51,200 nt of DNA from Clostridia bacterium. GTDB taxonomy: Bacteria; Bacillota; Clostridia; Christensenellales; DTU072. A program made the translations under genes and the position numbers. This document shows, piece by piece, positions 1 to 50,233 of this stretch. Each line of letters begins with the position of its first letter. The first letter of the stretch is position 1. Below the pieces are notes generated by a model. That model made no database searches. It was not told the origin of the DNA and saw only the letters and a program-made list of their open reading frames with translations. The stretch spans positions 1-51,200 of the forward strand of contig JAQVTZ010000001.1 in the NCBI GenBank assembly GCA_028699795.1. Reading direction: 5' to 3'.

Positions 1-199
1 GCCGAAACCGACGCTGATTTTTCAAATCAGGGTTCGGTTTCGCCTTACTCAGCCTATCCCGCATTGTCCGCCTCGGCATTCTTTCGCGGGGCTACGCGCC
101 CCGCTATCCCCCGACCTCGCCAACGCTAATTTCCTCACCGTGAGGACGGGTTTTCGCGTTTCTTTTTTCGGGGAATGGTTTGTTTTTTGTCGAATGCGC
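1..199 (+). repeat. Dispersed structured repeat, copy A (5' part cut by window edge)
   Basis: Aligns by eye with 47338-47541 and 50086-50319: long hairpin GCCGAAACCGAC..GGTTCGGTTTCGCC, GCGGGGC/GCCCCGC hairpin, then the 15-bp palindrome. Runs into promoter 200-228. Confidence 0.9.
132..146. promoter_or_regulatory. 15-bp palindrome TCCTCAC-C-GTGAGGA (site 1)
   Basis: Perfect 7-1-7 inverted repeat at the 3' end of repeat copy A, about 55 bp upstream of the -35 at 200. Confidence 0.8.
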
Positions 200-228
200 T
201 TGACAACGTATGTACACTATGCTATAAT
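200..228 (+). promoter_or_regulatory. Sigma-A type promoter, ATGTAC-spacer family
   Basis: TTGACA, 17-nt spacer (acgtATGTACactatgc), TATAAT. About 50 bp upstream of ATG 278. Confidence 0.75.
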
Positions 229-277
229 TGTGTCATAGGAAATAATTATTTGGAAGCATTAAAAAGGGGGCAATTAT

Positions 278-622
278 ATGAAATTAACGACAGCGGTTCA
301 AGTCCTTAAAAAAGAACTCGCCGAGCTCGCGGCGGTCGCGGATAAAGAAAAGGTTCTTGCTATCATGATATTTGACGAAATGGCAGAATACGATGTTTCT
401 ATGATTAACAAAATTTCTCAGAGGTCTCGGCTTATTCTCGGTCTGGGCTATTCGGAGTTTTTTGCAGATACAACGTCGGACAACGAGCTTTGCGCGGCAT
501 CTGAAAAGAGAGATATTCTTTTGAAGCATCTCGGCGTTGACGCGACAAGGTTGAACGAGGAGATGCGGTCAACATATGGCAAGAGGGGTTATGGTTTGGC
601 TGAGCGCGATTTAGACTGTTAG
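278..622 (+). CDS. Hypothetical protein (114 aa)
   Basis: ORF track. GGGGG RBS 7 nt before the ATG. First gene after repeat A and its promoter. No motif recognised. Confidence 0.65.
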   Translation: MKLTTAVQVLKKELAELAAVADKEKVLAIMIFDEMAEYDVSMINKISQRSRLILGLGYSEFFADTTSDNELCAASEKRDILLKHLGVDATRLNEEMRSTYGKRGYGLAERDLDC

Positions 623-744
623 AATGCGGAGGGCTTGATTGTGTTGAACAACAGGTATTATAAGTGGGGCGGCGGGCATGAATTTTTTTAAGCTTGATGA
701 CGGAGACGATTTTTCGAGGAAGAAAAATATATAAATTCATGTAC

Positions 745-773
745 TTGACTTTATATGTACAGAGTGTTATAAT
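745..773 (+). promoter_or_regulatory. Sigma-A type promoter, ATGTAC-spacer family, with conserved leader 774-830
   Basis: TTGACT, 17 nt (ttatATGTACagagtgt), TATAAT with TGn extended -10. Leader AGTGTAAAGAGA-hairpin GAGGAA/TTCCTC-GAAAGCGAGG before ATG 831. Confidence 0.8.
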
Positions 774-830
774 AATAGTGTAAAGAGAGGAAGCGAGGGT
801 TTCCTCCACATCAAGAAAGCGAGGCACACC

Positions 831-1211
831 ATGAGCGAGGTTTTGATAAAAGAATACGAGTTTTCAGCGACGGCAGATTGTGACATTTACTGCGGTAACT
901 GGAGCGACGTCAAAAAAGACATTCTTGTTTATGCGGCGGAACGCATTGCCTGTTATCACGGCGACATTTTTATCACTTTTGGTCAGGTTGCCGATAGGCT
1001 GTCTGACAAAAACCTTCTTTCCCAGAATTTGAACATACGGGTTTATATTCACGGGTACGGTGCTGATTATGTAGATATAGATAACCCTTGCTATGACACT
1101 GAAAATAGGGATATGTTGAAAAGGGCTGTTGAACACAAGGGCGTGGTTATGTCGATAAAAAGAGCGGCGGGGGGCAACACGGTTGCCGTGCGCATCGAGG
1201 AGGCTTTATGA
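831..1211 (+). CDS. Hypothetical protein (126 aa)
   Basis: ORF track. Conserved leader/SD upstream. Its stop overlaps the next start (ATGA at 1208). No motif recognised. Confidence 0.7.
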   Translation: MSEVLIKEYEFSATADCDIYCGNWSDVKKDILVYAAERIACYHGDIFITFGQVADRLSDKNLLSQNLNIRVYIHGYGADYVDIDNPCYDTENRDMLKRAVEHKGVVMSIKRAAGGNTVAVRIEEAL

Positions 1212-1786
1212 TTCCCAATGTATATCTAACGTTTATGAGGGATGCGGAGTATGTCTCTGTTTCAATGGACTCTCACATCGAAATTCGAGATTACGTCTCC
1301 GTTGTTGATTGGCTTACGTTTGAGCCGATGCGGGATGGTGAGTTTCCAAAGCGGGTGTGCCGCATTTTGGGAGACGGGCTGTATGGCGGCGTTTATGGGG
1401 TGCAGGAGTCTCTGACTACTCGTGCGGCTGTTTTTGCGTGGCGGATGAAATTCTGGGCGAATGCAAAGATTTATGTGCGCGAAGGATTGGAAGCCCCGTG
1501 GGTCGACATGAACGTGATTCCGTGGGAAGAAGGGGAAGCTCGAGAGGTTGAGACCGAGCAACTCCATATGACAGAACAAGAGGAGGTGCTCGTGGCGTCT
1601 CATGCCGAAAATCTTTGTGATGCCGATGGTGTTATCAAAGATTCTGTTGAATGGGTTGAGGCGGTTCTTGTTTGGGCGAACGTTCATGAGGCGGGCAGGG
1701 CTAAAAAGAAAGAGGAGCTCGAGCGGCTTTGGGGAAACGACGTCAAGTGCGGCATTATAATTTCCCAGAAAAAGGAGACAGAGTGA
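1208..1786 (+). CDS. Hypothetical protein (192 aa)
   Basis: ATGA start/stop overlap with the upstream gene. No motif recognised. Confidence 0.65.
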   Translation: MIPNVYLTFMRDAEYVSVSMDSHIEIRDYVSVVDWLTFEPMRDGEFPKRVCRILGDGLYGGVYGVQESLTTRAAVFAWRMKFWANAKIYVREGLEAPWVDMNVIPWEEGEAREVETEQLHMTEQEEVLVASHAENLCDADGVIKDSVEWVEAVLVWANVHEAGRAKKKEELERLWGNDVKCGIIISQKKETE

Positions 1787-2307
1787 GTCCTGCGCAGAAC
1801 GTTAAAACGGAAAGAGGGATTACAAAACGCGACTTCGTTACCTTTGTTCTTTTTCTTTTTGGGGTTGTGGGAATATTCATATTTCGTGCAACGGTGCTCG
1901 ATAGGGTTATGGTCGATGGAGACAGCATGTACCCTACTCTTTCTAATTCTGACGTTTTGTGGGCGACTCCCTTTTCCTCCGAGTCGGTTGAACGAGGAGA
2001 TATTGTTGTTGTTATGATGAACGGAAAAAAATGTATTAAGCGGGTTGTGGCGTTGCCTCTTGATTCTGTTGTTATTACAAACGGAACGGTTTATGTAAAT
2101 GGAACGGCGGAGGGGAGCGACGGCGGGGCGGGAACAGAATGTTCTCTTGTTCTTTCCGAAAACGAATATTATGTGATTGGAGATAACCGTAGCGTTAGTG
2201 GCGATTCTCGCGTTTTTGGTTCGTTGTCAAAAGATGATATGAAGGGTATTGTTTGGATTCGCATTTATCCTTTTGGGGATGCGGGGGAGGTAAGGGATGA
2301 ATATTAA
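1783..2307 (+). CDS. Signal peptidase I (S26 family, TraF/LepB-like)
   Basis: Motifs GDSMYPTL, GDIVVV, KRVVALPLD and GDNRSVSGDSR, plus an N-terminal TM segment. Start set to the in-frame GTG 1783, 5 nt after AAAGGAG. The track start 1729 overlaps the upstream gene. Confidence 0.85.
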   Translation: MSPAQNVKTERGITKRDFVTFVLFLFGVVGIFIFRATVLDRVMVDGDSMYPTLSNSDVLWATPFSSESVERGDIVVVMMNGKKCIKRVVALPLDSVVITNGTVYVNGTAEGSDGGAGTECSLVLSENEYYVIGDNRSVSGDSRVFGSLSKDDMKGIVWIRIYPFGDAGEVRDEY

Positions 2308-2803: not shown

Positions 2804-2811
2804 AATTATTT

Positions 2812-4250: not shown

Positions 4251-4265
4251 TCCTCACCGTGAGGA
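4251..4265. promoter_or_regulatory. 15-bp palindrome TCCTCAC-C-GTGAGGA (site 2)
   Basis: Perfect copy between the oriT candidate and the small ORF/mobC. Outside any long repeat. Confidence 0.8.
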
Positions 4266-4280: not shown

Positions 4281-4454
4281 ATGAAGTTGCCAATTTACTA
4301 TTTGATTGTTTATTCGGTAATCCTCGCATTGTTTTTCGCGAGCATTCTTGTAAATAAAAAGGTTGGTTCTAATGTTCGAATGAAAATATTATATAAAATC
4401 GTCAACGTAATTTTGTGGGCGACGATGTATGTTGTCGTGTTGCTGTTTGCATAA
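4281..4454 (+). CDS. Small two-helix membrane protein (57 aa, below ORF-track cutoff)
   Basis: My own translation: MKLPIYYLIVYSVILALFFASILVNKKVGSNVRMKILYKIVNVILWATMYVVVLLFA. GGGAGA lies upstream. Stop TAA at 4452-4454. Confidence 0.45.
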   Translation: MKLPIYYLIVYSVILALFFASILVNKKVGSNVRMKILYKIVNVILWATMYVVVLLFA

Positions 4455-4464
4455 GGAGTTGAAC

Positions 4465-4815
4465 ATGAAAAAATCATTCAGACATAGAGAATACAGGTTG
4501 TGTTTGTTTTTACTCGAAGAGGAAAAAGTTATGTTGGATAAAAAGGCTGATGAAGCAGGGATGTCTAAATCCGAGCTCGTTCGGAACTTAATAATGTATG
4601 GCGCGGCGCACGAGCGACATAAGTTTTCTAACGAATACGCGGGAAAGATTCTTTATGAAATAAATCGAATTGGAAACAATCTTAATCAGATTGCGTATGT
4701 TGCAAACAGCACAAAACATTTTAGTCGCGACGAGTTTGACAAGATGGTTAAGAGCTATAACGACCTTTTGAGTTATTACACAGAATACATGGTTGATTCG
4801 GAAGAGGGGGCATAA
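4465..4815 (+). CDS. mobC: MobC-family relaxosome accessory protein
   Basis: AAGGAG RBS before ATG 4465 (in frame within the track ORF). Pattern RLCLFLLEEEKVMLDKKADEAGMSKSELVRNLI..INRIGNNLNQIA is typical of MobC. TAATG overlap with the relaxase. Confidence 0.85.
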   Translation: MKKSFRHREYRLCLFLLEEEKVMLDKKADEAGMSKSELVRNLIMYGAAHERHKFSNEYAGKILYEINRIGNNLNQIAYVANSTKHFSRDEFDKMVKSYNDLLSYYTEYMVDSEEGA

Positions 4816-11400: not shown

Positions 11401-14400
11401 AGAAGACTGTCCTCGGGTCGGTCATTATCTTTGAGTAATTCCGCAAGTTTGTGAAGCGTATTTTCATCTGTTATGTAATAGTTTTTTGCGGCAGTAACAT
11501 GTTCGTCAAGCGTTCCGTAGTCACTATCCGTAAGCGTATAGACGGTTTGGTGTTCTTTTTCGGCGAGCTTTAGGTTGGTTTCGATTGGCATGTGGTCGTT
11601 GACTTTTTCTTTCAAGCCGCCTTTTTCGAGAACGAATTCTTTTATTTTGTCATCCGCGTCTACGAAAAACGAGTCCCTTTCGATTGGGTCATACTTTTCT
11701 TCGACGTATCCTCTAAATATAGCGCGTCCCGTTGGCTCATAGCCTCTCGTTCTTTCAAGCTCGAACGGCACATACCCAACTTCCCGCCAGTCGGCAATCT
11801 TTTCTTTGAGATTGTCCTCGAGATTTCCGCGCATAAAATCAGCGGAGTCGTATACGTATTCGCCCGTGATTACGTGCTTAAATTCAACGTTAAAGCCTCG
11901 CAGATAATAGTCGTCATATCCGTAATTCTCCTTTTTGTCTTCTTTCCAGTCGACATAGGCTTCGCTTGCGGATATATAGGTCATTTGCGGTATTTCGTAT
12001 AATTTTTCGGGATATTGGGCGCGTTGATAGGATTGTGGAGGCTCAGGGAGATAGTTCTGCGGGTATAGCGCCTTGTCTATCTTGTGTTCTGCGTCTGGGT
12101 CGTCGTTCACGACGCCCGTAATCCACTCTTTTGCTTCGACAAGGCTCTCGAAGGACATTGGTACTGACGGGACTTCGCCGAGATATACGATATTGGTTTC
12201 ATAGCTGTCGATTTTGTCATACTCGTATCCGCTTGCAAGCATGGCGTTGTCAATTTTTTCCTTGTACGCCTCAATGATGTCTTTTGCTATGTTGTCTGCA
12301 AAGAATATATCGGGCTCTTTTATGAGCGCTTCTGCGTCGCGCATTACATATTGCTCTTCGCTGATTTTATGTTCTTCGATGGTTCTTATATATCTGTCGC
12401 GTTCGGGAAGAATGTTTTTGGCGTATCGAGCGTCCATCAGTTGGTCGAGCAGTATTTCTTTTGCGAGCTTTGTTTTTGGGCTTGTCCATTCATATGCTTC
12501 AAGGCTCTTAATTGCTCTTTCTAGGGCGCGTTCGTGATAAAGACTACACGGCATTGGGTTTGTCGGGCGGGCGCTGTATTCATATGTAAGGCGTTCGGGA
12601 TAAAGTTCTCTTGTGATGGCGTAAGACTCTTTGCTCTGCGGGTCTTTTTGTATATATTCGTTGTTTAACCACGCCTCCGCATCGTTAATTGTGCGGAATA
12701 TTTTGGGGGATTCGCTTTCCTCTCCCTTAAAAACAATCTGATTCAGCGCATCGAGGGCGTCGGGTACGGTTTTTGCTACTGGATGATAACCGTAACTTTT
12801 TGGGATGTCGATTTCATACCCTACTTCCCTCATTGCATTTATGACTTTCAATTCGTTTTTGTCTTGTGCGGTTTTTCGAGCGGCTTCGATACGGTCAATC
12901 ATGTGTCTGTCATCGGTTATTTTCACTCTTTCGGGGTACAGGGCGAGGCGTATGATGTCTTTGGTTGTTGATAATTCGGGGCGCGTGAAGTTGGGATAAT
13001 TTGTCTCGGGATGCAGTATCCGACAAAGCCAATTTTCGGCGTCTTGGACAGTTGGGAAGCGTTCTATGTGTGGAAACGGGGGGTATTGCGGGTTGGTGTT
13101 ATTAAATTTCACTTCTCCCTGATAGGGTTCTGTTGTTTGGGTAAATCCGAGCGCCTCAAACGCCGCCTCGACTTTTTCTGTTTGTTCCCGTTCCATTTCA
13201 ACGCCCGCGGCTATAATGCGTTCTTTTTTTCCGCTCAGTACCTCGGTTATGCGGTTTCCGAGCGTTGCTTTTCTTTCTTCCCATAAAGAATAGGCGCGTT
13301 GATAGTTGTCTATTTGACGAGGCAGTTCATTGTATTGTCTGATAATGGAGGGGTCTTCAACCTCGTTCTCGGCGAACGCCTCTCTTACGTAATTGAGAGA
13401 AGCAATGTTTCCCACCATCAATTCAAAGGCGCTGTCTTCTAACAAGTCGGAGCGCGTTTTTGTTCCTCGGGCGTCATCATATCCGTACTGGTCATATTCG
13501 TGCATAAAGCTGTCTGCTCGCGCCGCAAGCTCATATGCGGAGTCTTGGAGCGTTTCTCGGCTTTCGTCGTTTTCGTTTATTTGGATTAGCAAATTTTCCG
13601 CGATTTCGCGTTGCTGTTGGTCGGGGGCGGTTTTGGACATTTCTTCTAATCTTTCGTATCTGTCAACCGTCTGACTCACGCCGTCTGTACCGATTTCCCG
13701 TGCGTAAAAATAAACCGAGCTTCTTTTCGCAATTTCGGTCTCTGCTTTGGCGAGGATGTTTGCTATGTTCTCTGTAAGGTCTTTTTCACGATTTTGAAGC
13801 TCTTGCGGCAGGAGAACGATTCCGAGCTCTTTTTCCGCCGAGCGTACTTTTTGAAAGCATCCGAGCTCTTCTGTCATCGTGAGCTGATTTTCTATTTTAA
13901 TGGCGGTTGTACTCTTGTTCTGCTGAATGCTTGCATTAAAGTTGCGGATAGGTTCATACCCGTATTGTGTGACGCGATATGCAATGTACGGCGCGTCGTT
14001 GTCTGCTCCGTGGTCGGCAAATCGAGCCCTTGCGTCCGTAATGATAATGTCTCCGTTAGATGCCGTTGTCCCACCTTTGGTTGCCGCCTCTACTCTCTCT
14101 TCGAGACTTGTATCCCCCGTCCTCACCGTGAGGAGACGGTTCTCCCCGTCCCTCATTCGAATGGTCATTAACTCGTAATTAGACGGAACGGGTGTTGATA
14201 AGTCGATTTCTATTTGCGTAACCTCTGGTTTTGGCTTCATTACGGCGAGAACGCTATGGATGTCTTTTTCGCGAGACTCCCTTACCCGAGTAACGTCGTC
14301 GAGGGCTTGTGTGAGCCTTCCCATTGCCTCAATTTTTTCCGCTTCGTCAAACGGCGCGGTCATATTGTCTATCATTTTGGTTTCCACCTCAAAGGGAGAG

Positions 14401-18409: not shown

Positions 18410-18816
18410 TTTGTTCTCCTTGTTGCGGGCGCGTCCTCACGGTGAGGACGACGCGGCGGAGGAGCGAGATTTTCGATTTGTTTAATAATTTCTTCTTTGC
18501 TGACCCCTAACTTATTGCCATAATCGATGGCAGAGACTATTTTATCGTCTAAAATGAGGCGGAGTTTGTCTCGAATCTTTTCGCGCACATACGGCTTAAC
18601 AAAGCATCCGACGCCCATTTTTTTTACGATAATGTCTTCTTCGTGCAGTTTGTCGATTATCTTTTGGGCAGTCGTGTTTCCAATCCCGTATATCTCGGTC
18701 ATTTCAACGATTGTGGGAAGGCGTTCCCCCGCCGCATAAATGCCGTTCATTATTTTGATTTCGAGGTCGGTTTTTACGGCTTCCCACAAATTTATGTTGT
18801 TTCTGGGTACGTTCAT
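18406..18816 (-). CDS. GntR-family (short, YhcF-like) transcriptional regulator
   Basis: wHTH pattern AGERLPTIVEMTEIYGIGNTTAQKIIDKLHEEDIIVKKMGVGCFV. AAAGGAG RBS. The C-terminal tail PPPRRPHREDAP is encoded by palindrome site 4. Confidence 0.8.
   Translation of the reverse strand: MNVPRNNINLWEAVKTDLEIKIMNGIYAAGERLPTIVEMTEIYGIGNTTAQKIIDKLHEEDIIVKKMGVGCFVKPYVREKIRDKLRLILDDKIVSAIDYGNKLGVSKEEIIKQIENLAPPPRRPHREDAPATRRTK
18434..18448. promoter_or_regulatory. 15-bp palindrome TCCTCAC-G-GTGAGGA (site 4)
   Basis: Perfect copy with flanking CG..CG that extends the arms to 9 bp. Lies in the 3' end of the GntR gene, 25 bp upstream of the topB start. Confidence 0.75.
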
Positions 18817-23094: not shown

Positions 23095-26000
23095 CTATAA
23101 CGCTTCGTCTTTGTCTTCTTCGATTTTTTCGTTGGGGTCTATCATCGGAGTTGTTTCAATAATGGTTTTTATTTTATACTCGATTTCGGTCTCTGTCATG
23201 TTTTCGCCAAAGCGGGTTGACATGAGCTTGTATAAGTAGGAGTCTTCGGGGAAGCGGTCTTCAAAAGGAACAATTATCTTTTCGGCAAAGATAAGACCGC
23301 TTCCCGCCTCTGCGCCAATAACAAAGCCCATTTGTGTTTCGGATATGTTCAGAAGTTCTGCCAATAGCTTCAAGTCCTCGCCGTTTTGGTTGAGCATCAT
23401 GATGAAGTCTGAGTTTCCTATCATTCCTCGGGCTTTTTCGGTTCGGAGCAAGTCCTCGACGTTTTGCGTCAGTCCTGTAATGCACAGTCCGTATTTACGA
23501 CCTCTCTTGTACAGTTGCTTCAAATATTCTGCTGAGAATTCGTTATTAAACATGACGTGTATTTCGTCGGCGTAACAGTATGTTCGGACGCCCCTGTTCT
23601 TGTTATCAACCATTCTGTTCCATATAAAATCGAAAATGATGGAGAGCGCGATTTGCCGCAGTTGGTCTCCGAGGTCTCGCACATTGAAAACAACCAGACG
23701 GTTGCTTACAGCAACGTTTGTTTTGTTGGCAAAGACATTCATGCTTCCTCGGGTGTAGTATTCTACGCCTACGGCAACCTGTCGTCCGTCCTCAACGCCT
23801 TTTTCCTTGTCGAGTTCGTTTTGCAAATCAAGGAGCGTTGGGATGTACTCTTGGTCAAAGTCATGGCTCATGAATTGCTCGTAACAACGCTTAACGCATT
23901 GGTCAACGATTGTTCGCTGAATAGGGGTAATCGTTGTTTTATTGTCGCCTCTACCCGTTGTTATCATGTCTTCGACAAGAGACATAATAAAGTTAGATTT
24001 TTTGGTAAGTGCTTTTGATTTTTTGAGGTCGATAGAAATGTCTTCTTTGTCGTCTTCGTCGAGTCCGTAATCTTCGGACATATCCATTGGGTTGATGTAA
24101 TAGGAGCTATCGGCGGATATGTCGAGTACCGTTCCGCCAAATGCGCGACAAAAATCTCCGTACTCGTTTTCGGGGTCGATAATCAATATGCTTGTTTCGT
24201 TGTCATGCAGAAGCACGTTGAGAATTTCCTCTTTCGTCGCGAAAGATTTTCCGCTTCCCGATGTTCCCAGAACAAAACCAGAGGGGGTTTTCATGGCAGA
24301 GCGATTTACGATTATTAGGTTTTTGGATATTTGGTTTAATCCGTAATAGTATCCGTGCGGCTGAAATAGCTCTTGATTTGAGAACGGCATAAATATTGCC
24401 GTACTCTCGGTCGTAAGCGTTCTCTCAACGCAGGTCTTTTCGGGCGGGTATCCAAAGGGCATGGTTATCTTATACCCTTCTTCCTGTTGATAGGTCAGCG
24501 GCATAAGCTGAGTTGTGAATTTTCTTGCCTTGCTTTCAACGACCTTGCAATGTTCGTTGAGCTCTTCGATATCCGCTCCGTAGACAAGCAACGTAATGGT
24601 TACAAAAAACATCTTTTGATTTTTGTTCAGCATGTCGTCGTATAGCGCCTCAGCTTGCGCGAGCGCGTCTTTAATACTATGCTGTATCGTTTCGGGGCTG
24701 TATCCCGACCTTATGGCTCTTTTTTCTGCGTCTATTTTGTCCTTTTCAATTCCCGTAAGCTGTTTTTGTACAATCTTTTTTCCCTTGTCCTGTGCTACGG
24801 GCTGTATGCTGAGCGTGGTTGTAACGGGAAAATCATTGTCGCATAACTCGTATAAAAATTCGTCTGAAAGAGATGCGGGGAGATTACTTAAATACAAGGC
24901 GCGGACAAGGCAGTTGTCGATTACCATATCGTTTTTGTTGAATTCAAAGGATGACGGCGCGATATAGTCCTTGCTCGAAATTCCTTGCGTCTTTATGAAG
25001 TCGTAATCGATGCTGAGTTCGCCCTCTCTTCCTTTTCTGAATTTGTCGTGGTAATACTCAAGGCGCTCGGACGTAGAAAGCATTTTGGCGTCGCTTCCGA
25101 TTTTGCGAACGTTTTGGATTACTTCGCTATCGATTTTGTGGAATCGGAGCAATGCCTCGATTGGCGTGTCCGCATCCGTTGTAACGGTCAGGTACTTTTC
25201 CACCTGTATGTCGTTTCTTCCTGCGCGGATTTGACGCTTGAGGATGTTGTTGTATTCGGTTCTATGTCGGTCGTGCTCGTCTCCCGTCAGCGGGTACAAT
25301 ATTTTGTTTTCCTGTTCTTGGAGAGATATTACACGGTTGTCTATTGTGAAGGCAAAACGCATGTCTTCTCCAAAATAGTTCAAAAATTCACACAGTTTAG
25401 AAAATATTATAAGCTGTTCGTCTTCGCGAGCGATTCGGTAATTGATGTCTTGAAGCCGATACATTTTACTAAATTTGTTTGGAGTAATTTCAAACAGCCC
25501 CTCGTCATAATCAGCAATAAAGGGGATGCTTTTTTGTGTCGAGTTCGGAATGACAAGGCGGGCTGTTCTTCTCTTCTGCATCGATGCGTTTTGCTTTCGG
25601 ATAGACTCTTTTCGGCGAACAACCGCTTTTTTTCGGTTGAGTGCGACCGTTTGATGGTATTTTTTCATCAGCGCCCGCTCTTTTTTTGTAAGCATATATC
25701 GCGGGTCGTTTTTCATCTTTTTGTTGATGTCCTGCGCCTTCTCCTCGAGGAGTTCAAATCCTGTTTTTCGCGTTTTTTTATTGTTATTCTTGTTCTCGTC
25801 CCCGTCTGGGGTCACGCCGTTTGCTGATTTTCCCTTTTTTGTCCTCACCGTGAGGAGCGCTACCTCGTCAACGTTAATATTTTCACCGTTTTCTTCGGCT
25901 TCTGTAATCAGCGCCGCTCGTTCCAAGCTGATTGATTTGCGGGTTTTTTCTTCTCTTCTCATTTCTCTCCTCGTTTTCGGACGCTCTTCTTCGAGTGCCA

Positions 26001-30465: not shown

Positions 30466-30480
30466 TCCTCACGGTGAGGA
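30466..30480. promoter_or_regulatory. 15-bp palindrome TCCTCAC-G-GTGAGGA (site 6)
   Basis: Perfect copy in the 48-bp gap between the PcfB-like gene and the coupling-protein gene. Confidence 0.75.
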
Positions 30481-33077: not shown

Positions 33078-33323
33078 CTTGCCTTCGGACGGACGTCGGA
33101 ACGCACAAGAGCTTTCGCGACATAAACCGCTACGCTTTTTATTTCACGGTCTCTTGTACATTCCTTGCATGCGGGCTTTTTCGACTTTGCCGAAACCGAC
33201 GCTGATTTTTCAAATCAGGGTTCGGTTTCGTTTTACTCAGCCTATCCCGCATTGTCCGCCTCGGCATTCTTTTGCGGGGCTACGCGCCCCGCTACCCCCC
33301 CGACCTCACCAACGCTGATTTTC
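33078..33323 (+). repeat. Dispersed structured repeat, copy B (shorter at both ends, no palindrome)
   Basis: Aligns with 49975-50218 of copy E. Several substitutions fall in the long hairpin (GACTTT.., ..TTTCGTTTT). Confidence 0.85.
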
Positions 33324-34917: not shown

Positions 34918-35274
34918 ATGACGAGTTATTTTGCATTGCGGGTAAGCCCGCGGCTTAAAGATGATTTTTATGCGTTTTGCAAGCGCAAGGGCGTGTCGGC
35001 GGGTACGGCGGTTAAAATGTTTGTAAAAAGCTTCCTTTCCGTCGGAGCTGACAAGTTGGGTTGGTCTCTTCTCAACAGCGATAGCGTTGTTTACGGAGAA
35101 GGGGATAATCCTGCGCGGGTTTCTATTCTTATGGACGCTGAGTTGCGGAGGGCGTTTTCGGATGCTTGTGCGGAGATTGGCGTTCCAATGAGCGTCGTCG
35201 TGAGGTCGTTCATGTTTTTTGTTGTTAAGAACGACTCGTTCCCGTTTCAGGATGGGAAGGCGGGTTGTCCATGA
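34918..35274 (+). CDS. Tandem RelB/DinJ-like ribbon-helix-helix protein (118 aa)
   Basis: Two DinJ-like units: FALRVSPRLKDDFYAFCKRKGVSAGTAVKMFVKSFL and RVSILMDAELRRAFSDACAEIGVPMSVVVRSFMFFVVKNDSFPF. GAAGGAGG RBS. Confidence 0.7.
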   Translation: MTSYFALRVSPRLKDDFYAFCKRKGVSAGTAVKMFVKSFLSVGADKLGWSLLNSDSVVYGEGDNPARVSILMDAELRRAFSDACAEIGVPMSVVVRSFMFFVVKNDSFPFQDGKAGCP

Positions 35275-36827: not shown

Positions 36828-36842
36828 TCCTCACGGTGAGGA
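36828..36842. promoter_or_regulatory. 15-bp palindrome TCCTCAC-G-GTGAGGA (site 7)
   Basis: Perfect copy between convergent operons. Preceded by ATGCCCGTTTTT, the first bases of the long repeat. Confidence 0.75.
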
Positions 36843-39149: not shown

Positions 39150-39254
39150 GTCGTTTCTCCTTTTAAGGCGTATGTTTTTTCCACGAGCCCTTATATCCAT
39201 TATCATACCCCATCTCTGCATACATTTCTCAAAAAATGCGTGTGCCTCCCTGTT

Positions 39255-39731
39255 TCTTCCCGCGTCGTTCCTCCTCCGCTAGACCCGAAAGCCGTTATAC
39301 GGGCAAGGGGGCGCAGAGCACCCCATGAAATAAAGAACAACGGCGATGCCGTTGAGCCCGTGGCACTCTTGCCTTCTTCGAAGGGTTTTGCCTTCGGACG
39401 GACATCGGAAGGCGCAAGAGCTTTCGCGACATAAACCGCTACGCTTTTTATTTCACGGTCTCTTGCACTTTCCTTTCATGCGGGCGTTATCGGCTTCGCC
39501 GAAACCGACGCTGATTTTTCAAATCAGGGTTCGGTTTCGCCTTACTCAGCCTATCCCGCATTGTCCGCCTCGGCATTCTTTCGCGGGGCTACGCGCCCCG
39601 CTATCCCCCGACCTCGCCAACGCTGATTTTCCTCACCGTGAGGACGATTTTGCGTTTTTCTTTTTTTGGGGGGGGGTAGTTTGTTTGGTGTCCACGTCGT
39701 TTACAAAGGTCGCAGTTCGCGTAAATGGTGC
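39255..39731 (+). repeat. Dispersed structured repeat, copy C (lacks the opening terminator)
   Basis: Aligns by eye with 49852-50319 of copy E almost base for base. G9 tract at 39668-39676 versus G8 in copy E. Confidence 0.9.
39630..39644. promoter_or_regulatory. 15-bp palindrome TCCTCAC-C-GTGAGGA (site 8)
   Basis: Perfect copy at the 3' part of repeat C, about 90 bp upstream of the -35 at 39732. Confidence 0.8.
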
Positions 39732-39760
39732 TTGACAACGTATGTACTACGTGTTACAAT
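39732..39760 (+). promoter_or_regulatory. Sigma-A type promoter, ATGTAC-spacer family, with conserved leader 39761-39811
   Basis: TTGACA, 17 nt (acgtATGTACtacgtgt), TACAAT. Leader AGTGTAAAGAAATCAA-GCC(gtaa)GGC-ACGTGAAAGCGAGGA. Confidence 0.8.
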
Positions 39761-42259: not shown

Positions 42260-43900
42260 TTGTCGTTTTGTGGCTATTTGAACCAGTTATACACGGGACG
42301 CGGAGGGTATGTCGCACACGGCACTATCTCTGTTGACGGCATGTATTCCGAACGGTTTATGGCGGCAAGCGACGTTTTTTCTCTGAGGGTTGATGAAACA
42401 AATAATGAATATATCTCCCTCAACACGTTTCTTTCTCCTTTGAAGCCCGACGGTTCGGGCGGTCGCAAAGTCAACAACCTCAAGCGGCTGAACGCGCTTT
42501 ATTTGGATATCGATTGCTATAAGCTCGGACTTTCGAAAGATGACGTTCTTTCTCGGCTCGAGCGCTTTTATTATGGCGAAAAAATTCCTCTGCCAACGTT
42601 CGTGATAGATTCGGGGCGCGGGCTGTATCTTATTTGGAGCATCAATGAGGACAGAAATGCCCTTCCCCGATGGTCTCGGGTACAGCAGTTTCTTTATGAA
42701 ACGTGTAAAGACCTCAATGCCGACCCTCAAGCCCTCGATGCCGCACGGATTCTGCGTGTTCCATCCTCGGTAAATCAAAAGAACGGCGTCAGCGTATCTG
42801 TTCTGCGGTTTAACGACGTGTCCTATACCCTTTACGGTATCATCAAAGACTACCCCGTTTCAGGGGTCGCTAAAAGGGATTCAAAGGCGTCTCGATACGG
42901 TCAGGCGACGGAGTGCCAGAGACGAACGGCAAAATGGATTTCTTCGCTCACAAACACGCCAATTCCCGACTTCTCTTCCTTTATGGAAACGTTTGAGTAT
43001 ATTTCCTTTCATCGACAGAAACTCCCTTCTCACTCTTCGCGGCGCGATTCGTCACTGCGGGGTGAGCGTCCTTCCCTACATAATATGCTTGAGGGGCGCT
43101 GTGATGACCTATTTCGGCTTTTTGCCTCGCGGCGTGGTGAAGATTGCTCGCGAGAGTATGCGCTCTTTTTGTGCCGTTTGTGGGCGTATGAGCGTACCCA
43201 TGACCGTGCATATGCAGAGACCATGATGCTGTCTCTTAATCGCTCCTTTGATGTACCCTTTTCGGTGAACTATGCGACTTCACGGACAATGAGCGCAGAG
43301 ACTATTATTGACCGCGGCGAGACATATAAATACTCGCTTGATAAAATATACGCCGTTCTGAGAATCCTGCCCGAAGAGGCGGACGGGTTGCTGTTTCTAA
43401 AAAAATCGAAGATGGATGCCGAGCATAAGAAAGAAAAAAACCGCAGGTATTATCTCGAGCAGTTACAGCGTGACGGACGGTTGACTGTCTCAGAGCAGAT
43501 GTTTAATCGCCGTCAATTTCTTTCGATGCTTATACGGCGGGGAATTCCCAAAAAAAAGATATGCTCGATTCTGGGCGTTTCAGAACGTACATACGATTCT
43601 GACTTCAAGCACATTCTAAAATCTCTTCCATTTAGGCGCACGAGCAACTTGTTCAGCGGGCTTGCTTCGCGCTTTTCGAACGCTTCACTTTTGGGTGCGC
43701 AATTTTTTCAGCCGCCCTATTATAAGAGTAACGCCAAAGGCGTTACCGCCTCCCCTCTTCTTTGTTTAACATACGGTAGTTTGGCTCGTTTTTCTAAGCT
43801 TAAATATCGATATGCTGTTTTTGATAATGAAACGCATATCCTACTCACCGTGAGGATGTTGGAAGGCAGAATTCGAATGCGAATAAACTTACTTATTTGA
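42260..43900 (+). CDS. Plasmid replication initiator, primase-polymerase (AEP)-like N-terminal domain plus C-terminal HTH
   Basis: LYLDIDC (DxD), VIDSGRGLYLIW and ARILRVPSSVNQK resemble prim-pol motifs. HTH RRGIPKKKICSILGVSERTY. TTG start 8 nt after AGGGGG; the start codon is uncertain. Confidence 0.6.
   Translation: MSFCGYLNQLYTGRGGYVAHGTISVDGMYSERFMAASDVFSLRVDETNNEYISLNTFLSPLKPDGSGGRKVNNLKRLNALYLDIDCYKLGLSKDDVLSRLERFYYGEKIPLPTFVIDSGRGLYLIWSINEDRNALPRWSRVQQFLYETCKDLNADPQALDAARILRVPSSVNQKNGVSVSVLRFNDVSYTLYGIIKDYPVSGVAKRDSKASRYGQATECQRRTAKWISSLTNTPIPDFSSFMETFEYISFHRQKLPSHSSRRDSSLRGERPSLHNMLEGRCDDLFRLFASRRGEDCSREYALFLCRLWAYERTHDRAYAETMMLSLNRSFDVPFSVNYATSRTMSAETIIDRGETYKYSLDKIYAVLRILPEEADGLLFLKKSKMDAEHKKEKNRRYYLEQLQRDGRLTVSEQMFNRRQFLSMLIRRGIPKKKICSILGVSERTYDSDFKHILKSLPFRRTSNLFSGLASRFSNASLLGAQFFQPPYYKSNAKGVTASPLLCLTYGSLARFSKLKYRYAVFDNETHILLTVRMLEGRIRMRINLLI
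43842..43856. promoter_or_regulatory. Near-perfect palindrome TACTCAC-C-GTGAGGA (site 9)
   Basis: One mismatch in the left arm. Lies in the 3' end of rep (translated LLTVRM), about 70 bp upstream of the parA promoter. Confidence 0.65.
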
Positions 43901-43924: not shown

Positions 43925-43953
43925 TTGACACGTTATGTACATTATGTTAATAT
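43925..43953 (+). promoter_or_regulatory. Sigma-A type promoter, ATGTAC-spacer family, with conserved leader (parAB)
   Basis: TTGACA, 17 nt (cgttATGTACattatgt), TAATAT. Leader AGAGTAAAGAAGA-GCTGTTT(taga)AACAGC-AGAAAGCGAGGA. Confidence 0.8.
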
Positions 43954-44006: not shown

Positions 44007-44822
44007 ATGGCTACTAAGTTTTTGGCGTTTGTTAATGGAAAGGGCGGAGTAGGGAAAACGACCTCTGTTTTTCACGTTGCAGGCGTACTTTCTAAAAGGG
44101 GTGAGCGTGTTCTTGTTATCGATATGGATAAACAAAGAAACTCTACTCAGTCGTTTGTTTTGGAAAACAAGCCCTCTTACACCATTTACGATTTGATGAT
44201 ACCGTATCGCTTGAGTAACAATGTTCTGAACGAAATGCGCAAGAGTGGTGTTTCGTTTGAGGGCGCAGTTACAAAAACTCTTTTCAAGCACCACGGGAAT
44301 GCGAGTCCGCGATATTACGGCGTCGACATTATTTGTGGGGACATCCGCATGGATGACCAACGAGAGCTTGCTCTGGTTAAAAGCGACGAATTTGCAAATT
44401 GTATTCGAGGGGGTTCTTGCGAGTATGATTGGGTTATTGTTGATATGCCCCCTTCCAACAAAGAGGTTAATCGCATTACTTTTGCTTTTGTCGACCATGC
44501 CGTGATTCCGCTTACCACGGACGACACAGACTCCATTTCGGGTTACGGGGACATTGTAAAAGAGGTTGACGCGGCGAGGTCAGCAAATCCAACGTTAAGC
44601 GTTCTGGGCGTCTATTGTTCGCGTTATTCCCCTTCTTCTTTGAGCGATTATGTTCGGGGCGAAGTGGAGAAGTTTTCGACATTCATTCCCGTTGTTATCC
44701 CGAGGCTCGCGGTTATCCCAGAAGCTCGCGCCCTCAATCGTCCGCTCAGTTTTTATCACAAGGGAGAGGCTCTTGAAGCCTTTGAAAGTTTAGTAGATGA
44801 AATCACAAGGAGGATATCATAA
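44007..44822 (+). CDS. parA: ParA/Soj-family partition ATPase
   Basis: Deviant Walker A NGKGGVGKTT; VLVIDMDKQ. Confidence 0.92.
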   Translation: MATKFLAFVNGKGGVGKTTSVFHVAGVLSKRGERVLVIDMDKQRNSTQSFVLENKPSYTIYDLMIPYRLSNNVLNEMRKSGVSFEGAVTKTLFKHHGNASPRYYGVDIICGDIRMDDQRELALVKSDEFANCIRGGSCEYDWVIVDMPPSNKEVNRITFAFVDHAVIPLTTDDTDSISGYGDIVKEVDAARSANPTLSVLGVYCSRYSPSSLSDYVRGEVEKFSTFIPVVIPRLAVIPEARALNRPLSFYHKGEALEAFESLVDEITRRIS

Positions 44823-45940
44823 TGGCTAAGAATTTTAAGAACACGGAAAGCGCAAAAACGATTCAGGACGCTCTTCAAACGTCTGAGACGTTGGCACAGG
44901 TTGTTACGCTCAAGATGGTCAAAACGGACGATTTGGTCGACTATCAGCATAACCACGAGGATATTACGGATACCGCAGACCTCGAGAATTCCATTCGCGA
45001 GATTGGCTTTACTGACCCGATAGAGGTTACGTCGTTTGGTGCTGAGGAAGGCAAGTATACCATCGTCAGCGGACATCGCAGACGTGCGGCGGGCGTCAAG
45101 TGCGGCATTAAGGTTTTCCCTTGTGTCGTTAAGAATTTCAGCTCGGCAAATGACGTTTCCAATTATGTCCTACTCGCGAACAGCCAGAGAGACTCCGCAA
45201 AAGACCCTCTCTTGTTTTCCAAGCGATATCTGATGCACGAACAATACCTAAAAGACGCCAATTTTGAGGGCAACGTCCGCGAAGAAATTGCTCGTCGTCT
45301 TGGAATATCCGTACAGCAAGCCGACCGTTATGCGGCGATGAACAAGGTTATTGAACCTGTTGCTGAAATGGTGCGCGAAGATATGGTTGGGATGTCAAGC
45401 GTGATTCCGCTTGCAAGCCATACCCCCGAAGAACAGGCAGAAATTCTGTCAATCATGAGCGGTTGCGACGAGTCTTTGACCCGCGACACCGTTAAGAATA
45501 TTGTCGACGGTTACAGGGACGGAAAACGGGCATGGAGCGAGTTTGAGGTCGGCAAGAACGTCGTTTCTGATGCCGTCCTCTCTCCGTCAGATTTATCCGA
45601 TGACCTAAAGGACGATTCGGACTTTTCAGAAGACGATGAAGGCGAGAAGCCAAAAGCTCGGGAGAGAGTTGTTCCTGCTTCTTCTCTCGAATCAATGAAG
45701 GAAGAAAAGTCGCCCGAAGAGAAAAACGGAGCGGATGTGCTTCGCTATCTCGAAAAACTTAATTCGTGCTTTCTCAATCCTTATTTTTACGAAGACGTAT
45801 CCGAGGCGGAAGACGTGATACGGACGATGGGAGCAACCGTTAAGGTTTTGCTTGATGAAATTTCAGAGATTTCGCGCCAGTATGACAAGGAAAAGGTTTA
45901 CGAGGCGGTTTTGCGCGACATAAAGAAAAAGTTAAAGTAA
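44822..45940 (+). CDS. parB: ParB/KorB-family protein (372 aa)
   Basis: TAATG overlap with parA. ParB N-terminal box IVSGHRRRAAG. HTH region EEIARRLGISVQQADRY. Acidic linker. Confidence 0.88.
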   Translation: MAKNFKNTESAKTIQDALQTSETLAQVVTLKMVKTDDLVDYQHNHEDITDTADLENSIREIGFTDPIEVTSFGAEEGKYTIVSGHRRRAAGVKCGIKVFPCVVKNFSSANDVSNYVLLANSQRDSAKDPLLFSKRYLMHEQYLKDANFEGNVREEIARRLGISVQQADRYAAMNKVIEPVAEMVREDMVGMSSVIPLASHTPEEQAEILSIMSGCDESLTRDTVKNIVDGYRDGKRAWSEFEVGKNVVSDAVLSPSDLSDDLKDDSDFSEDDEGEKPKARERVVPASSLESMKEEKSPEEKNGADVLRYLEKLNSCFLNPYFYEDVSEAEDVIRTMGATVKVLLDEISEISRQYDKEKVYEAVLRDIKKKLK

Positions 45941-47026: not shown

Positions 47027-47061
47027 TTATTGAATCCTCGTTACTTTGCTATCGATTCTGA

Positions 47062-47086
47062 CAGCGGGCTCTCCCCGCTGTTTTTT
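47062..47086 (+). terminator. Intrinsic terminator (opening part of repeat D)
   Basis: CAGCGGG-ctctc-CCCGCTG followed by T6. Confidence 0.85.
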
Positions 47087-47473
47087 ATGCCCGTTTTCCC
47101 GCCCCGCGTCGTTCCTCCTCCGCCAGACCCGAAAGCCGTTATACGGGCAAGGGGGCGCAGAGCACCCCATGAAAGAAAGCTCAACGGCGTTGCCGTTGAG
47201 CTCGTGGCACGCTTGCCTTCTTCGAAGGGATTTGCCTTCGGACGGACATCGGAACGCACAAGAGCTTTCGCGACATAAACCGCTACGCTTTTTATTTCAC
47301 GGTCTCTTGCACTTTCCTTTCATGCGGGCTTTTTCGGCTTTGCCGAAACCGACGCTGATTTTCCAAAGCAGGGTTCGGTTTCGCCTTATTAAGCCTATCC
47401 CGCATTGTCCGCCTCGGCGTTCTTTCGCGGGGCTACGCGCCCCGCTATCCCCCGACCTCGCCAACGCTGATTT

Positions 47474-47488
47474 TCCTCACCGTGAGGA
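47474..47488. promoter_or_regulatory. 15-bp palindrome TCCTCAC-C-GTGAGGA (site 10)
   Basis: Perfect copy in repeat D, about 55 bp upstream of the -35 at 47542. Confidence 0.8.
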
Positions 47489-47541: not shown

Positions 47542-47570
47542 TTGACAACGTATGTACAGAGTGTTATAAT
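47542..47570 (+). promoter_or_regulatory. Sigma-A type promoter, ATGTAC-spacer family, with short conserved leader
   Basis: TTGACA, 17 nt (acgtATGTACagagtgt), TATAAT. Leader AGAGTAAAGAAGTGAAAGCGGGGG. Confidence 0.8.
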
Positions 47571-48565: not shown

Positions 48566-48617
48566 GTAAGGGTAAAGAGAAGTCGCCGCAAGGCATGGAG
48601 AAAGCAGAGGTTTCATC

Positions 48618-48896: not shown

Positions 48897-48906
48897 GGGG
48901 TCGGAT

Positions 48907-49197
48907 ATGGAAAAGAACAATGGTTATGCCGATACCGTCCTTATTGCCAACATTGTCGACCGTGCTTACGATTTGTTTCGGAAGTTGGACATGAGCGATT
49001 TTTCCAAGCGAGAAAAGATTTTTTTGATGATGGATATTGACCATGCTCACAAGCAAATTGAGCTCGACCTTGTTGCGTTTTATGAGGCGGACGATGATAA
49101 TTTCATGCACGATATTATGGGCATCGTTGGTCACATGAATCGGAGCACGAAACAATTTGAGGGTGACTTTGTTCCGCGCTTTGCGCTTCAGGGATAG
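48907..49197 (+). CDS. Hypothetical protein (96 aa)
   Basis: ATG 48907 behind GGGGG, in frame within track ORF 48787-49197, whose 5' part overlaps the previous gene. No motif recognised. Confidence 0.6.
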   Translation: MEKNNGYADTVLIANIVDRAYDLFRKLDMSDFSKREKIFLMMDIDHAHKQIELDLVAFYEADDDNFMHDIMGIVGHMNRSTKQFEGDFVPRFALQG

Positions 49198-49214
49198 GCG
49201 CGAGGAGGGTTTTC

Positions 49215-49622
49215 ATGTGCGTTGATTATATGTTGTATGTCTACCTTCGCACGGAACGCGACTTGTGGACGGTTGGGTTTTATCGGAACGACACGTTTGT
49301 TTCTGAGAGCGACCACTCTTCCCCCGATGCGGCGGCGGAGCGTGTTGCATGGCTTAACGGAGCTCGTTTCCGCGCAGAGGATTATGCGGCAAAGGATAAA
49401 TCCATAAGCGCTGATGTTGTGCCGCTCGGACTCGCCGAAGCCGCTATCGCTCTGAGAGAGGGTAAGAAAATCCGCATGGTGAATTGGAAAAAGACGGACT
49501 ATATTCGATATGACCGTTCTCGCAAGTGTTTTGTGGACGCGGGCGGAAACGCGCTTCCTCTTTTTGTTGTTAATGCGAGCGCCGTCGAAAACGACCGAGC
49601 ATTTATTCTTTGCGACGAATAG
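49215..49622 (+). CDS. Hypothetical two-domain protein (135 aa); C-terminal half possibly DUF2829-like
   Basis: GAGGAGGG RBS. The C-terminal LAEAAIALREGKKIRMVNWKKTDYIRYD weakly resembles the DUF2829 opening (..A..AL..GKK..R.GW..). From memory, unverified. Confidence 0.6.
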   Translation: MCVDYMLYVYLRTERDLWTVGFYRNDTFVSESDHSSPDAAAERVAWLNGARFRAEDYAAKDKSISADVVPLGLAEAAIALREGKKIRMVNWKKTDYIRYDRSRKCFVDAGGNALPLFVVNASAVENDRAFILCDE

Positions 49623-49637
49623 CATGCCGATGTGGAA

Positions 49638-49784
49638 ATGCTGAGCGCGCGAGTGACCGATGCCAAACACAGGCTTATTGAGGTTGCGGACGGAATAGAA
49701 AATAGAGGGTACGTTCGGGAGGCTAAATCGCTTAACCGCCTTTGCGGGTTAATTGAGATTTGGCAACAAAAGGCGAGGTTCTGA
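49638..49784 (+). CDS. Possible small ORF (48 aa, below track cutoff)
   Basis: My own translation: MLSARVTDAKHRLIEVADGIENRGYVREAKSLNRLCGLIEIWQQKARF. No convincing RBS. Fills the gap before terminator 49807. Confidence 0.3.
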   Translation: MLSARVTDAKHRLIEVADGIENRGYVREAKSLNRLCGLIEIWQQKARF

Positions 49785-49806
49785 TTTATTTTGATTCCGT
49801 TTCCGA

Positions 49807-49831
49807 CAGCGGGTTCTCCCCGCTGTTTTTT
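49807..49831 (+). terminator. Intrinsic terminator (opening part of repeat E)
   Basis: CAGCGGG-ttctc-CCCGCTG followed by T6. Confidence 0.85.
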
Positions 49832-50218
49832 ATGCCCGTTTTCCCACCCCGCGTCGTACCTCCTCCGCCAGACCCGAAAGCCGTTATACGGGCAAGGGGG
49901 CGCAGAGCACCCCATGAAATAAAGAACAACGGCGTTGCCGTTGAGCCCGTGGCACTCTTGCCTTCTTCGAAGGGTTTTGCCTTCGGACGGACATCGGAAC
50001 GCACAAGAGCTTTCGCGACATAAACCGCTACGCTTTTTATTTCACGGTCTCTTGCACTTTCCTTTCATGCGGGCGTTATCGGCTTCGCCGAAACCGACGC
50101 TGATTTTTCAAATCAGGGTTCGGTTTCGCCTTATTAAGCCTATCCCGCATTGTCCGCCTCGGCGTTCTTTCGCGGGGCTACGCGCCCCGCTATCCCCCGA
50201 CCTCGCCAACGCTGATTT

Positions 50219-50233
50219 TCCTCACCGTGAGGA
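50219..50233. promoter_or_regulatory. 15-bp palindrome TCCTCAC-C-GTGAGGA (site 11)
   Basis: Perfect copy in repeat E, about 90 bp upstream of the -35 at 50320. Confidence 0.8.

Follow-up and report, generated by a model that had tools for sequence, protein, structure and literature searches.

A number of ParB-family systems are already known to use dispersed sites, namely KorB of RK2, N15 and Noc, and a review places centromere sites 'either at a single locus or scattered across the genome' (PMC5016525). In the case of the IncP plasmid RK2, the ParB-family protein KorB is encoded beside a ParA protein (IncC), in a system that also includes KorA. Its operator OB (TTTTAGC-G-GCTAAAA) consists of 7-bp arms around one central G/C (PMC11790492), and the sites are scattered over a conjugative plasmid of ~60 kb, near to and far from promoters (PMC11790492; PMC5016525). 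KorB is a cytidine triphosphate (CTP)-dependent sliding clamp and can repress promoters at distances between 4 bp and over 1 kb (PMC11790492). Here we describe a 15-bp palindrome, TCCTCAC-S-GTGAGGA, that recurs over a conjugative plasmid of a Clostridia bacterium (GenBank assembly GCA_028699795.1, contig JAQVTZ010000001.1, positions 1 to 51,200; this whole stretch of 51,200 bp is called the window). As judged from the comparison of sequences, the 15-mer is most likely the specific duplex site of the plasmid's own ParB-family protein, that is, the counterpart of parS and OB.

KorB-OB of RK2 is the nearest system in how it works. The two share a ParB-family protein encoded beside ParA, a dispersed layout of sites, and the KorB-like site geometry that an earlier note on this DNA had proposed and that is now borne out, the centre being C or G in 163 of 163 pooled sites. 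Unlike KorB and OB, however, the window ParB is non-orthologous, the half-site sequence is unrelated and the host belongs to Clostridia rather than Proteobacteria; the sites here exceed those of KorB in number (up to 27), follow an even spacing and are for the most part intercistronic, and no KorA-like clamp-locking partner was identified here, a TATGTAC element in the promoters being a candidate second operator only.

The chromosomal ParB/Spo0J-parS system gives the best sequence match to the N-terminal domain of the window ParB and also includes a ParA partner. The half-sites of parS, TGTTTCAC|GTGAAACA, end in TCAC and begin with GTGA, as in the plasmid motif. In contrast to that motif, parS is an even 16-bp palindrome, so that the extra central base of the plasmid site shifts the half-sites by 1 bp, and parS is clustered near the origin (~15% of the chromosome), whereas the plasmid motif covers the whole replicon. 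Noc of Bacillus, acting at its NBS sites, is a ParB-family CTPase with many palindromic sites scattered over a replicon and no single centromere; it works without a ParA partner and anchors DNA at the membrane by means of an N-terminal amphipathic helix, whereas here the parA gene overlaps the start of parB and sister lineages show classical centromere arrays. SopB-sopC of F offers tandem arrays of short inverted repeats beside the par genes, as in three relatives of the window plasmid (loci L007, L195 and L229), and SopB of N15 has the same site type scattered over the genome, reportedly at four centromere sites only; the ParA of these Sop systems is of the large type Ia with a helix-turn-helix (HTH), unlike the small ParA found here. 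VirB of Shigella pINV, likewise of the ParB family, controls transcription through parS-like sites on a large plasmid, and differs as an anti-silencer with neither a partition role nor a ParA partner. The novelty of the present case lies in the host group and the site sequence, in how many sites there are and how regularly they are spaced, in their being kept inside genes, and in the fact that one protein family combines tandem, bracketed and dispersed layouts.

The palindrome in the window and in related plasmids

A search of the window with TCCTCACSGTGAGGA, allowing up to two mismatches, recovered ten perfect copies of the palindrome and one copy with a single mismatch, where dinucleotide-preserving shuffles give 0.03 (with a maximum of 1 in any shuffle); even at two mismatches, no site beyond these 11 was found in the whole window. 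All the copies listed in the earlier note, with their coordinates, were thus recovered and nothing was added. The window begins and ends with the same 127 bases (1-127 = 51074-51200), an overlap of the length expected from an assembler run with k = 127; the contig is therefore a closed circle and represents a complete plasmid of 51,073 bp. As the earlier note had also reported, only four of the 11 sites are inside long repeat cassettes (132, 39630, 47474 and 50219); the other seven have unrelated flanks and share nothing but the 15 bp.

No near-identical DNA to the window is present in the plasmid database PLSDB, and the plasmid pOBV01, described below and carried by Oscillibacter valericigenes Sjm18-20, the one host in culture, has no megablast similarity to it; relatives were therefore located through the ParB protein. 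The family found in this way has 631 members at E <= 1e-10, the majority carried by metagenomic contigs of 30-100 kb, and most relatives are partial contigs. The ParB of pOBV01 (60,586 bp) is 67% identical to that of the window over amino acids (aa) 1-239, and its backbone matches that of the window in rep, parA, parB, relaxase, type IV secretion system (T4SS), GntR, topoisomerase, giant open reading frame (ORF), HU and TraX. It carries 27 copies of T(A/C/T)CTCAC-S-GTGAG(G/T)A, the commonest form being TACTCACCGTGAGGA, which is also that of site 9 in the window, and the generalised site is T(C/A)CTCAC-S-GTGAG(G/T)A. Three relatives (L005, L006 and L175) whose ParB is 45% identical, at 30% GC, have the same GC-rich 15-mer every 4.1-4.5 kb, and among 80 further metagenome ParB loci most of the longer ones bear ~1-6 TCAC-S-GTGA sites per 10 kb. 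The earlier note had considered that related plasmids with the same ParB might lack the motif; they carry it, at 27 copies in pOBV01 and at the densities just given in most longer relatives. In the literature searched, neither the motif, nor this ParB family, nor any plasmid with ParB sites at regular intervals is described: the TCAC-S-GTGA core matched unrelated primer sequences only, and the sole pOBV01 paper is a genome announcement.

Outside the family, the motif looks different. The exact 15-mer occurs in 32 stretches of a viral collection, at one copy each, and in a genome collection of 596 Gb the matches listed (at least 118 stretches) are nearly all single copies, spread over all phyla including archaea and about as frequent as expected by chance for a collection of that size. 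The few multi-copy contigs among the matches listed are small and of Clostridia type, and two of them (L102 and L125) encode this ParA/ParB pair. The comparison with chromosomal frequency that the earlier note had proposed has in this way been made in part, and among the matches listed it returned isolated, chance-level single matches outside the ParB family. These data bear on the idea that the palindrome is a generic REP-like, selfish or recombinational element of host genomes with no plasmid function. REP elements are likewise extragenic, palindromic and often placed just past stop codons; nevertheless, the single-copy, chance-like scatter of all 32 viral stretches and nearly all of the genome stretches listed, the conserved part of only 15 bp between unrelated flanks, the orthologous positions where plasmid DNA no longer aligns, and the restriction of multi-copy contigs, among the matches listed, to small Clostridia-type ones, two of them with this ParA/ParB pair, leave it with very little probability. 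One of these multi-copy contigs, L102 (WQWD01000347.1, labelled 'MAG: Treponema sp.'), is the same as L200 (Ga0123355_10206816), a contig of 2,854 bp with a Clostridia-type ParA/ParB and five sites, and is probably a mis-binned plasmid fragment.

The 11 sites of the window, none of which is assigned to a strand, are given below with their pOBV01 counterparts.

Site 1, 132..146: TCCTCACCGTGAGGA; part of a repeat cassette, with the -35 of a consensus promoter at 200-228 lying 53 nt downstream.
Site 2, 4251..4265: perfect; in an intergenic region, 163 nt ahead of a NikA/MobC-like gene (4429-4815), which is followed by the relaxase gene (4815-6677); pOBV01 counterpart at 18549, 170 nt upstream of the nikA-like gene.
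Site 3, 14120..14134: perfect; within the giant ORF (2377 aa, ArdC-N/LPD25), 1471 nt from its start, encoding LLTVRT; pOBV01 counterpart at 46263, nt 1520 of the giant ORF, in a different frame and encoding ITHGEE.
Site 4, 18434..18448: perfect, central G; at the 3' end of the GntR gene (18406-18816), at its junction with the topoisomerase gene (the two genes spanning 16157-18816); pOBV01 counterpart at 40260, 36 nt past the GntR stop codon.
Site 5, 25842..25856: perfect; within the linker of a PrgI-VirB4 fusion (23095-26322), 466 nt from its start, encoding LLTVRT; pOBV01 counterpart at 28133, nt 469 of virB4, in the same frame.
Site 6, 30466..30480: perfect, central G; in the 48-nt gap between a 546-aa ORF and VirD4 (27688-30435); pOBV01 counterpart at 23353, in the gap before virD4.
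Site 7, 36828..36842: perfect, central G; between convergent genes, just past a terminator-like hairpin, at the 3' end of a GmrSD_N-HNH / EcoRI-like methylase module.
Site 8, 39630..39644: perfect; part of a repeat cassette, with the -35 of the promoter at 39732-39760 lying 87 nt downstream.
Site 9, 43842..43856: TACTCACCGTGAGGA, one mismatch; 68 nt upstream of the -35 of the parA promoter; pOBV01 counterpart at 2802, 81 nt upstream of the corresponding -35.
Site 10, 47474..47488: perfect; part of a repeat cassette, with the -35 of the DUF3991/Toprim gene's promoter (47542-47570) lying 53 nt downstream.
Site 11, 50219..50233: perfect; part of a repeat cassette, with the -35 of the promoter at 50320-50348 lying 86 nt downstream.

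The gene contexts agree with those assigned in the earlier note (relaxase region, giant ORF, GntR/topoisomerase, VirB4, VirD4 gap, convergent genes and parA). Six of the seven non-repeat sites have an orthologous position in pOBV01, despite the fact that the DNA no longer aligns. The site in the giant ORF is kept in different frames in the two plasmids, which matches the prediction of selection at the DNA level; intragenic sites fall in charged, linker-like segments, such as EETDDE[DTHGED]EQ, and one frame of the motif contains TGA, which one pOBV01 gene takes as its stop codon. The transfer/T4SS block is inverted relative to the rep-par block between the plasmids (window 6878-32145, pOBV01 21452-50849). 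A function as recombination sites at module boundaries was rejected, as the sites are conserved within the syntenic blocks and not at the breakpoints between the window and pOBV01. The 7-1-7 geometry fits neither serine nor tyrosine recombinase core sites.

The pattern of variation is that of a duplex site. At the centre of the 163 unique CTCAC-S-GTGAG sites, C (81 sites) and G (82 sites) are almost equally frequent, and A and T do not occur; the flanks beyond the 15-mer show no more than a weak g...c extension in A/T-rich surroundings. Variation at position 2 is independent of that at position 14, without compensation: in pOBV01, 12 sites have the arms TAC...GGA and five TCC...GTA, in which the pair is broken, versus four TCC...GGA and three TAC...GTA. 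A strand or orientation signal was rejected in view of the balance of C and G at the centre, which in pOBV01, where all genes lie on one strand, is 17 C to 10 G. Such variation counts against a hairpin acting in RNA or in transferred single-stranded DNA, either as an intercistronic element of mRNA processing or stability or as a priming signal for the DUF3991/Toprim primase. The strong bias of the sites to intercistronic gaps just past stop codons in long co-directional operons would suit this idea, and the statement of the earlier note that a 1-nt loop excludes a hairpin holds for a strict 7-bp stem only, a 6-bp stem with a 3-nt loop being possible, if weak. This best RNA fold (-6.6 kcal/mol, z = -1.2 to -1.6) is nonetheless indistinguishable from those of shuffled sequences, no compensatory changes are seen, and in 20 of the 27 pOBV01 sites pair 2/14 or 3/13 is broken (A.G, C.T or T.G). 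The arms in the array of L007 differ (TTATCAC and TACTCAC), leaving only four contiguous pairs beside the loop, and sites are also found between convergent genes, upstream of promoters and in tandem arrays beside parAB, so that the hairpin appears highly improbable. Because the arms vary independently and the fold is weak, it is the sequence that is conserved, not the pairing.

ParB and the link of the sites to parAB

The partition genes of the window and their promoter are the following.

parA, 44007..44822, + strand: 271-aa Walker-type ParA/MinD-class ATPase (AAA_31 E = 9.6e-25; also CbiA and MipZ).
parB, 44822..45940, + strand: 372-aa ParB-family protein with a ParB_N domain, the proposed binder.
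parAB promoter, 43925..43953, + strand: TTGACA-cgtTATGTACattatgt-TAATAT followed by GTAAAGA, as read from the sequence.

The last base of parA (44822) is the first base of the parB start codon. ParA is of the small type, without an N-terminal HTH, so that ParB, at the upstream site, is the expected agent of parAB autoregulation. ParB matches Pfam ParB_N (E = 1.8e-8, above the curated cut-off), and its phosphate motif G84-H-R-R-R88-x-A90 and N-x-QR box (N120/Q122/R123) are invariant in 18 diverse homologues; the recognition helix of its HTH reads RLGISVQQADRY. The Glu of the canonical GERRxR motif is His throughout the family (GHRRR). This Glu has been reported as crucial for CTP hydrolysis in ParB, and KorB, with Ala at that position, still hydrolyses CTP (PMC11790492). 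The CTPase kinetics of the GHRRR family may be unusual.

The AF2 model of ParB (mean pLDDT 77.6) is confident over residues 27-243, followed by a disordered linker (244-299) and a helical C-terminal domain. Structures of KorB, Noc and chromosomal ParB in which the DNA-binding domain is present align with residues 27-243 over ~200-225 columns (target-normalised TM-scores of 0.66-0.75); Noc (7nfu) is the top structural match, and the similarity to the three folds is equal and does not discriminate among them. At the sequence level, the profile match of ParB to KorB has E = 0.0067, as against 1.8e-9 for Caulobacter ParB, and a single-sequence match to KorB (8qa8) reaches only E = 0.1. By sequence, the window ParB is thus not a KorB orthologue and is nearer to chromosomal ParB and Noc.

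That ParB, and not another protein, is the probable binder is suggested by the relatives, because their arrays and bracketing sites surround parA-parB. In three loci (L007, L008 and L172) parA is immediately preceded by a tandem 25-bp array of TTATCACGGTGAGTA, with no further copy in 16 kb; in L229 the gap between parA and parB is taken up by five copies of CCATCACGGTGATGG at intervals of 36-37 bp, and in L195 there is an 11-copy tandem array with a period of 32-33 bp. Another six (L102, L206, L209, L210, L212 and L214) have sites upstream of parA, a pair in the parA-parB gap and one ~720 nt into parB. In these six loci the latter site falls right after the HTH domain, at the start of the linker. 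The proposal of the earlier note that ParB is the binder therefore gains support through the relatives, in which the same core stands in arrays upstream of parA, in the parA-parB gap or on both sides of parAB.

These layouts also bear on two other candidates. In favour of Rep-binding iterons or replication-control sites, a homologue of the 546-aa Rep-like protein is encoded just upstream of parA in the window, pOBV01, L007, L206 and L209, so that an array upstream of parA is there downstream of rep as well. However, six loci (L102, L197, L210, L212, L214 and L229) keep the sites around parAB with no Rep homologue in the locus, on which ground Rep iterons were rejected; iterons are moreover direct repeats clustered at the origin, as opposed to symmetric palindromes spread evenly over 50-60 kb, and 11-27 dispersed copies would titrate Rep. 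We regard this as exceedingly unlikely.

The palindrome might instead be the operator of some other plasmid regulator, with the ParB site elsewhere; GntR (18406-18816), RelB, a ribbon-helix-helix (RHH) protein (34918-35274), the NikA-like RHH protein or an unrecognised small protein would be the candidates. A GntR-family protein is present in pOBV01 too, with a site at the 3' end of its gene in both plasmids, and any plasmid-encoded binder would co-vary with plasmid lineage. Yet contigs with little beyond parA and parB keep four or five bracketing sites (L102, L210 and L214), the arrays coincide with the parA-parB gap (L229) or precede parA (L007 and L172), and the half-site tracks the ParB helix, as detailed below. 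No other over-represented palindrome that would be fit for parS was found in the window or in pOBV01. Such a regulator seems to us improbable.

ParB as binder is further suggested by the outer bases of the half-site, which co-vary with the predicted recognition helix, RLGIS-x-x-Q-A-D-R-Y, as follows.

Helix ..QQADRY: half-site TCCTCAC or TACTCAC (~30 loci, ~20 distinct helix sequences).
Helix TPQ, TAQ or IAQ: half-site TAATCAC or TTATCAC.
Helix KPQAERY: half-site CCATCAC.
Helix KQQAERY: half-site CCCTCAC.
Helix QQAFRY or QQAARF: half-site CTCTCAC.

The inner TCAC-S-GTGA and the helix residues Q-A-x-R-Y/F are fixed throughout. A single-residue code, in which a change of helix Gln to Pro or Ala goes with C to A at half-site position 3, fits most loci and was rejected owing to exceptions in L170 and L188.

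Several points weigh against ParB as the binder of this site, or limit how far its behaviour can be predicted. The helix variants PAQ and VPQ go with TCC/TAC half-sites, and the covariation also follows plasmid lineage, a confounder, so that what the sequences suggest is a covariation and not a demonstrated code. Four metagenome ParB loci of 7-18 kb do not contain the TCAC-S-GTGA core; among relatives of that size, L205, L223 and L230 show no such site and L235 (11.6 kb) bears another palindrome, CGGTTA-N-TAACCG, in three copies. With His in place of Glu in the phosphate motif, the CTP hydrolysis behaviour of this family cannot be assumed. The conclusion that the motif is not a chromosomal repeat is supported but not proven, resting as it does on the genome-collection matches listed and not on host chromosomes. 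A further locus, L218 (21 kb), has no TCAC-S-GTGA sites and carries GTCAC-N-GTGAC three times at 390-bp spacing; its palindrome and that of L235 may be further specificity classes. As the comparison of sequences shows, the site is real, conserved at the DNA level, tied to parAB, co-varying with the ParB helix and non-randomly placed.

Spacing, promoters and the role of the sites

The placement of the sites is far from random. In 24 loci, 116 of 170 sites are not fully inside an ORF, compared with 24.5 expected (P ~7e-57). In pOBV01, which is 87.5% coding, 20 of the 27 sites lie outside or only partly overlap an annotated coding sequence, and ten are found 0-12 nt past a stop codon within co-directional operons. 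The spacing is even as well: on the closed circle of the window the gaps have a coefficient of variation (CV) of 0.50 (P = 0.016; mean spacing ~4.6 kb), and in pOBV01 a CV of 0.44 (P = 5e-5), with a largest gap of 4.6 kb (P = 6.5e-4). When the intergenic preference was built into the null model, none of 20,000 simulations was as even as pOBV01. Partial relatives give similar runs of gaps (4149, 4446, 4510 and 3893 bp in L005; 4496, 4485 and 5264 bp in L219). Density varies between plasmids, and within one plasmid the sites tile the replicon.

The relation to promoters is looser. A promoter family, TTGACA-N3-TATGTAC-N7-TATAAT followed by ..GTAAAGAG, has ten copies in the window, including the parA promoter, and the same architecture is found upstream of parA in pOBV01 (L001, ~2898).

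Family promoters, + strand, starting at 200, 745, 32278, 33368, 34852, 39732, 43925, 47542, 48537 and 50320.

Five of the ten, that of parAB included, are preceded by a site whose distance to the -35 is 53, 53, 68, 86 or 87 nt; no site is near the remaining five, none lying within 0.6-3 kb, and six of the 11 sites are 0.6-3 kb from recognisable promoters, a distance compatible with distal action. These figures argue against a classical operator role, which the sequence does not indicate for most sites, and a promoter-proximal operator for every site was rejected, only five of the 11 being near promoters. Because half of the family promoters and the cassette at 33079-33320 have no site, the palindrome is not a promoter component, although it sometimes occupies an OB-distal-type position, which in the KorB work means 45 bp to more than 1 kb upstream of the promoter (PMC11790492).

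The promoters themselves combine near-consensus -35 and -10 hexamers with TATGTAC in the spacer and GTAAAGAG just downstream; these conserved blocks are a candidate operator of a second, KorA-like regulator, or the signature of a dedicated sigma factor. The repeat cassette (~430 bp) is present in five copies upstream of promoters (33079-33320, 39197-39644, 47041-47488, 49786-50233 and 50773-51200/1-146). It contains a GC-rich hairpin, GCGGGGC-TACG-CGCCCCGC, and four of the five copies end in the palindrome; in the copy at 33079-33320, TTCACAC takes its place and the site is lost. A cargo module (36850-39221, - strand), made of a GmrSD_N + HNH nuclease (367 aa) beside an EcoRI-type adenine methyltransferase (E = 2.7e-145), is flanked by the sites at 36828 and 39630 and has no counterpart in pOBV01 by tblastx.

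By analogy with ParB, Noc and KorB, a mechanism can be proposed in which a ParB dimer would place one HTH on each 7-bp arm, and binding of the site together with CTP would close the dimer into a clamp. The clamp would then slide off the site, allowing the next dimer to load, and with near-even sites (11 here, 27 in pOBV01) the whole plasmid, rather than one locus, would become loaded with ParB. A plasmid loaded in this manner would be the cargo of the adjacent ParA ATPase, partition being the expected primary function. In addition, the ParB complex would probably damp plasmid promoters at a distance, including that of parAB, as KorB does on RK2. For all these steps, physical binding, CTP clamping and sliding, partition and repression, we infer from the analogous systems what the plasmid protein may do.

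Of the KorB-like operator that the earlier note had proposed, the link to ParB, the site geometry and the dispersed layout stand and KorB orthology does not; transcriptional control would follow from analogy with KorB, and we consider a transcriptional role of the sites close to evenly poised, tilting slightly to the doubtful side. The alternative that the ParB sites are purely centromeric or architectural, building one plasmid-wide ('holocentric') partition complex with no role in transcription, is a plausible reading that we hold less likely to be the full account. It would explain why sister lineages use the same site in ordinary centromere arrays beside parAB, and it agrees with the even spacing, mostly away from promoters, and with the many sites in short gaps of co-directional operons, 0-12 nt past a stop. 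On the other hand, five promoters, including that of parAB, have a site at a short fixed distance (53, 53, 68, 86 and 87 nt), a ParA without HTH makes autoregulation of parAB through ParB the expectation, and KorB shows that the two roles can coexist.

A more speculative proposal, and an unlikely one as it stands, is that the centromere of these plasmids has dissolved into a regular lattice of ParB loading sites, held even within genes by the recoding of linkers, with a spacing of ~2.2 kb in pOBV01 and ~4.1-4.6 kb in the window, L005, L175 and L219 lineages. If that were true, sliding ParB-CTP clamps would coat the entire replicon, giving a 'holocentric' plasmid in which the spacing reports the sliding range of the clamp. 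Such a coat could also serve in plasmid-wide silencing that lowers the cost of carriage, in the control of the conjugation operons, or in shielding it from host systems acting on plasmid DNA, and the tandem and bracketed sister lineages would represent the ancestral state of a natural evolutionary series.

All together, RK2 KorB is the best understood case of long-range control by a sliding ParB clamp, and the Clostridia ParB family offers a second system for comparison. The regularity of the spacing could provide a measure of clamp sliding range in vivo, and the five or more half-site variants paired with helix variants would amount to a ready-made specificity code to study. From a practical point of view, the motif can be used as a metagenome marker for this plasmid family and for mis-binned contigs. 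As regards the biology of the hosts, the results point to a large, uncharacterised ParB family on conjugative plasmids of 30-100 kb in gut and other anaerobic Clostridia, which appears to share site geometry and dispersed layout, and which presents a natural series of site architectures, from the tandem array through the bracketed parAB to the evenly dispersed form.

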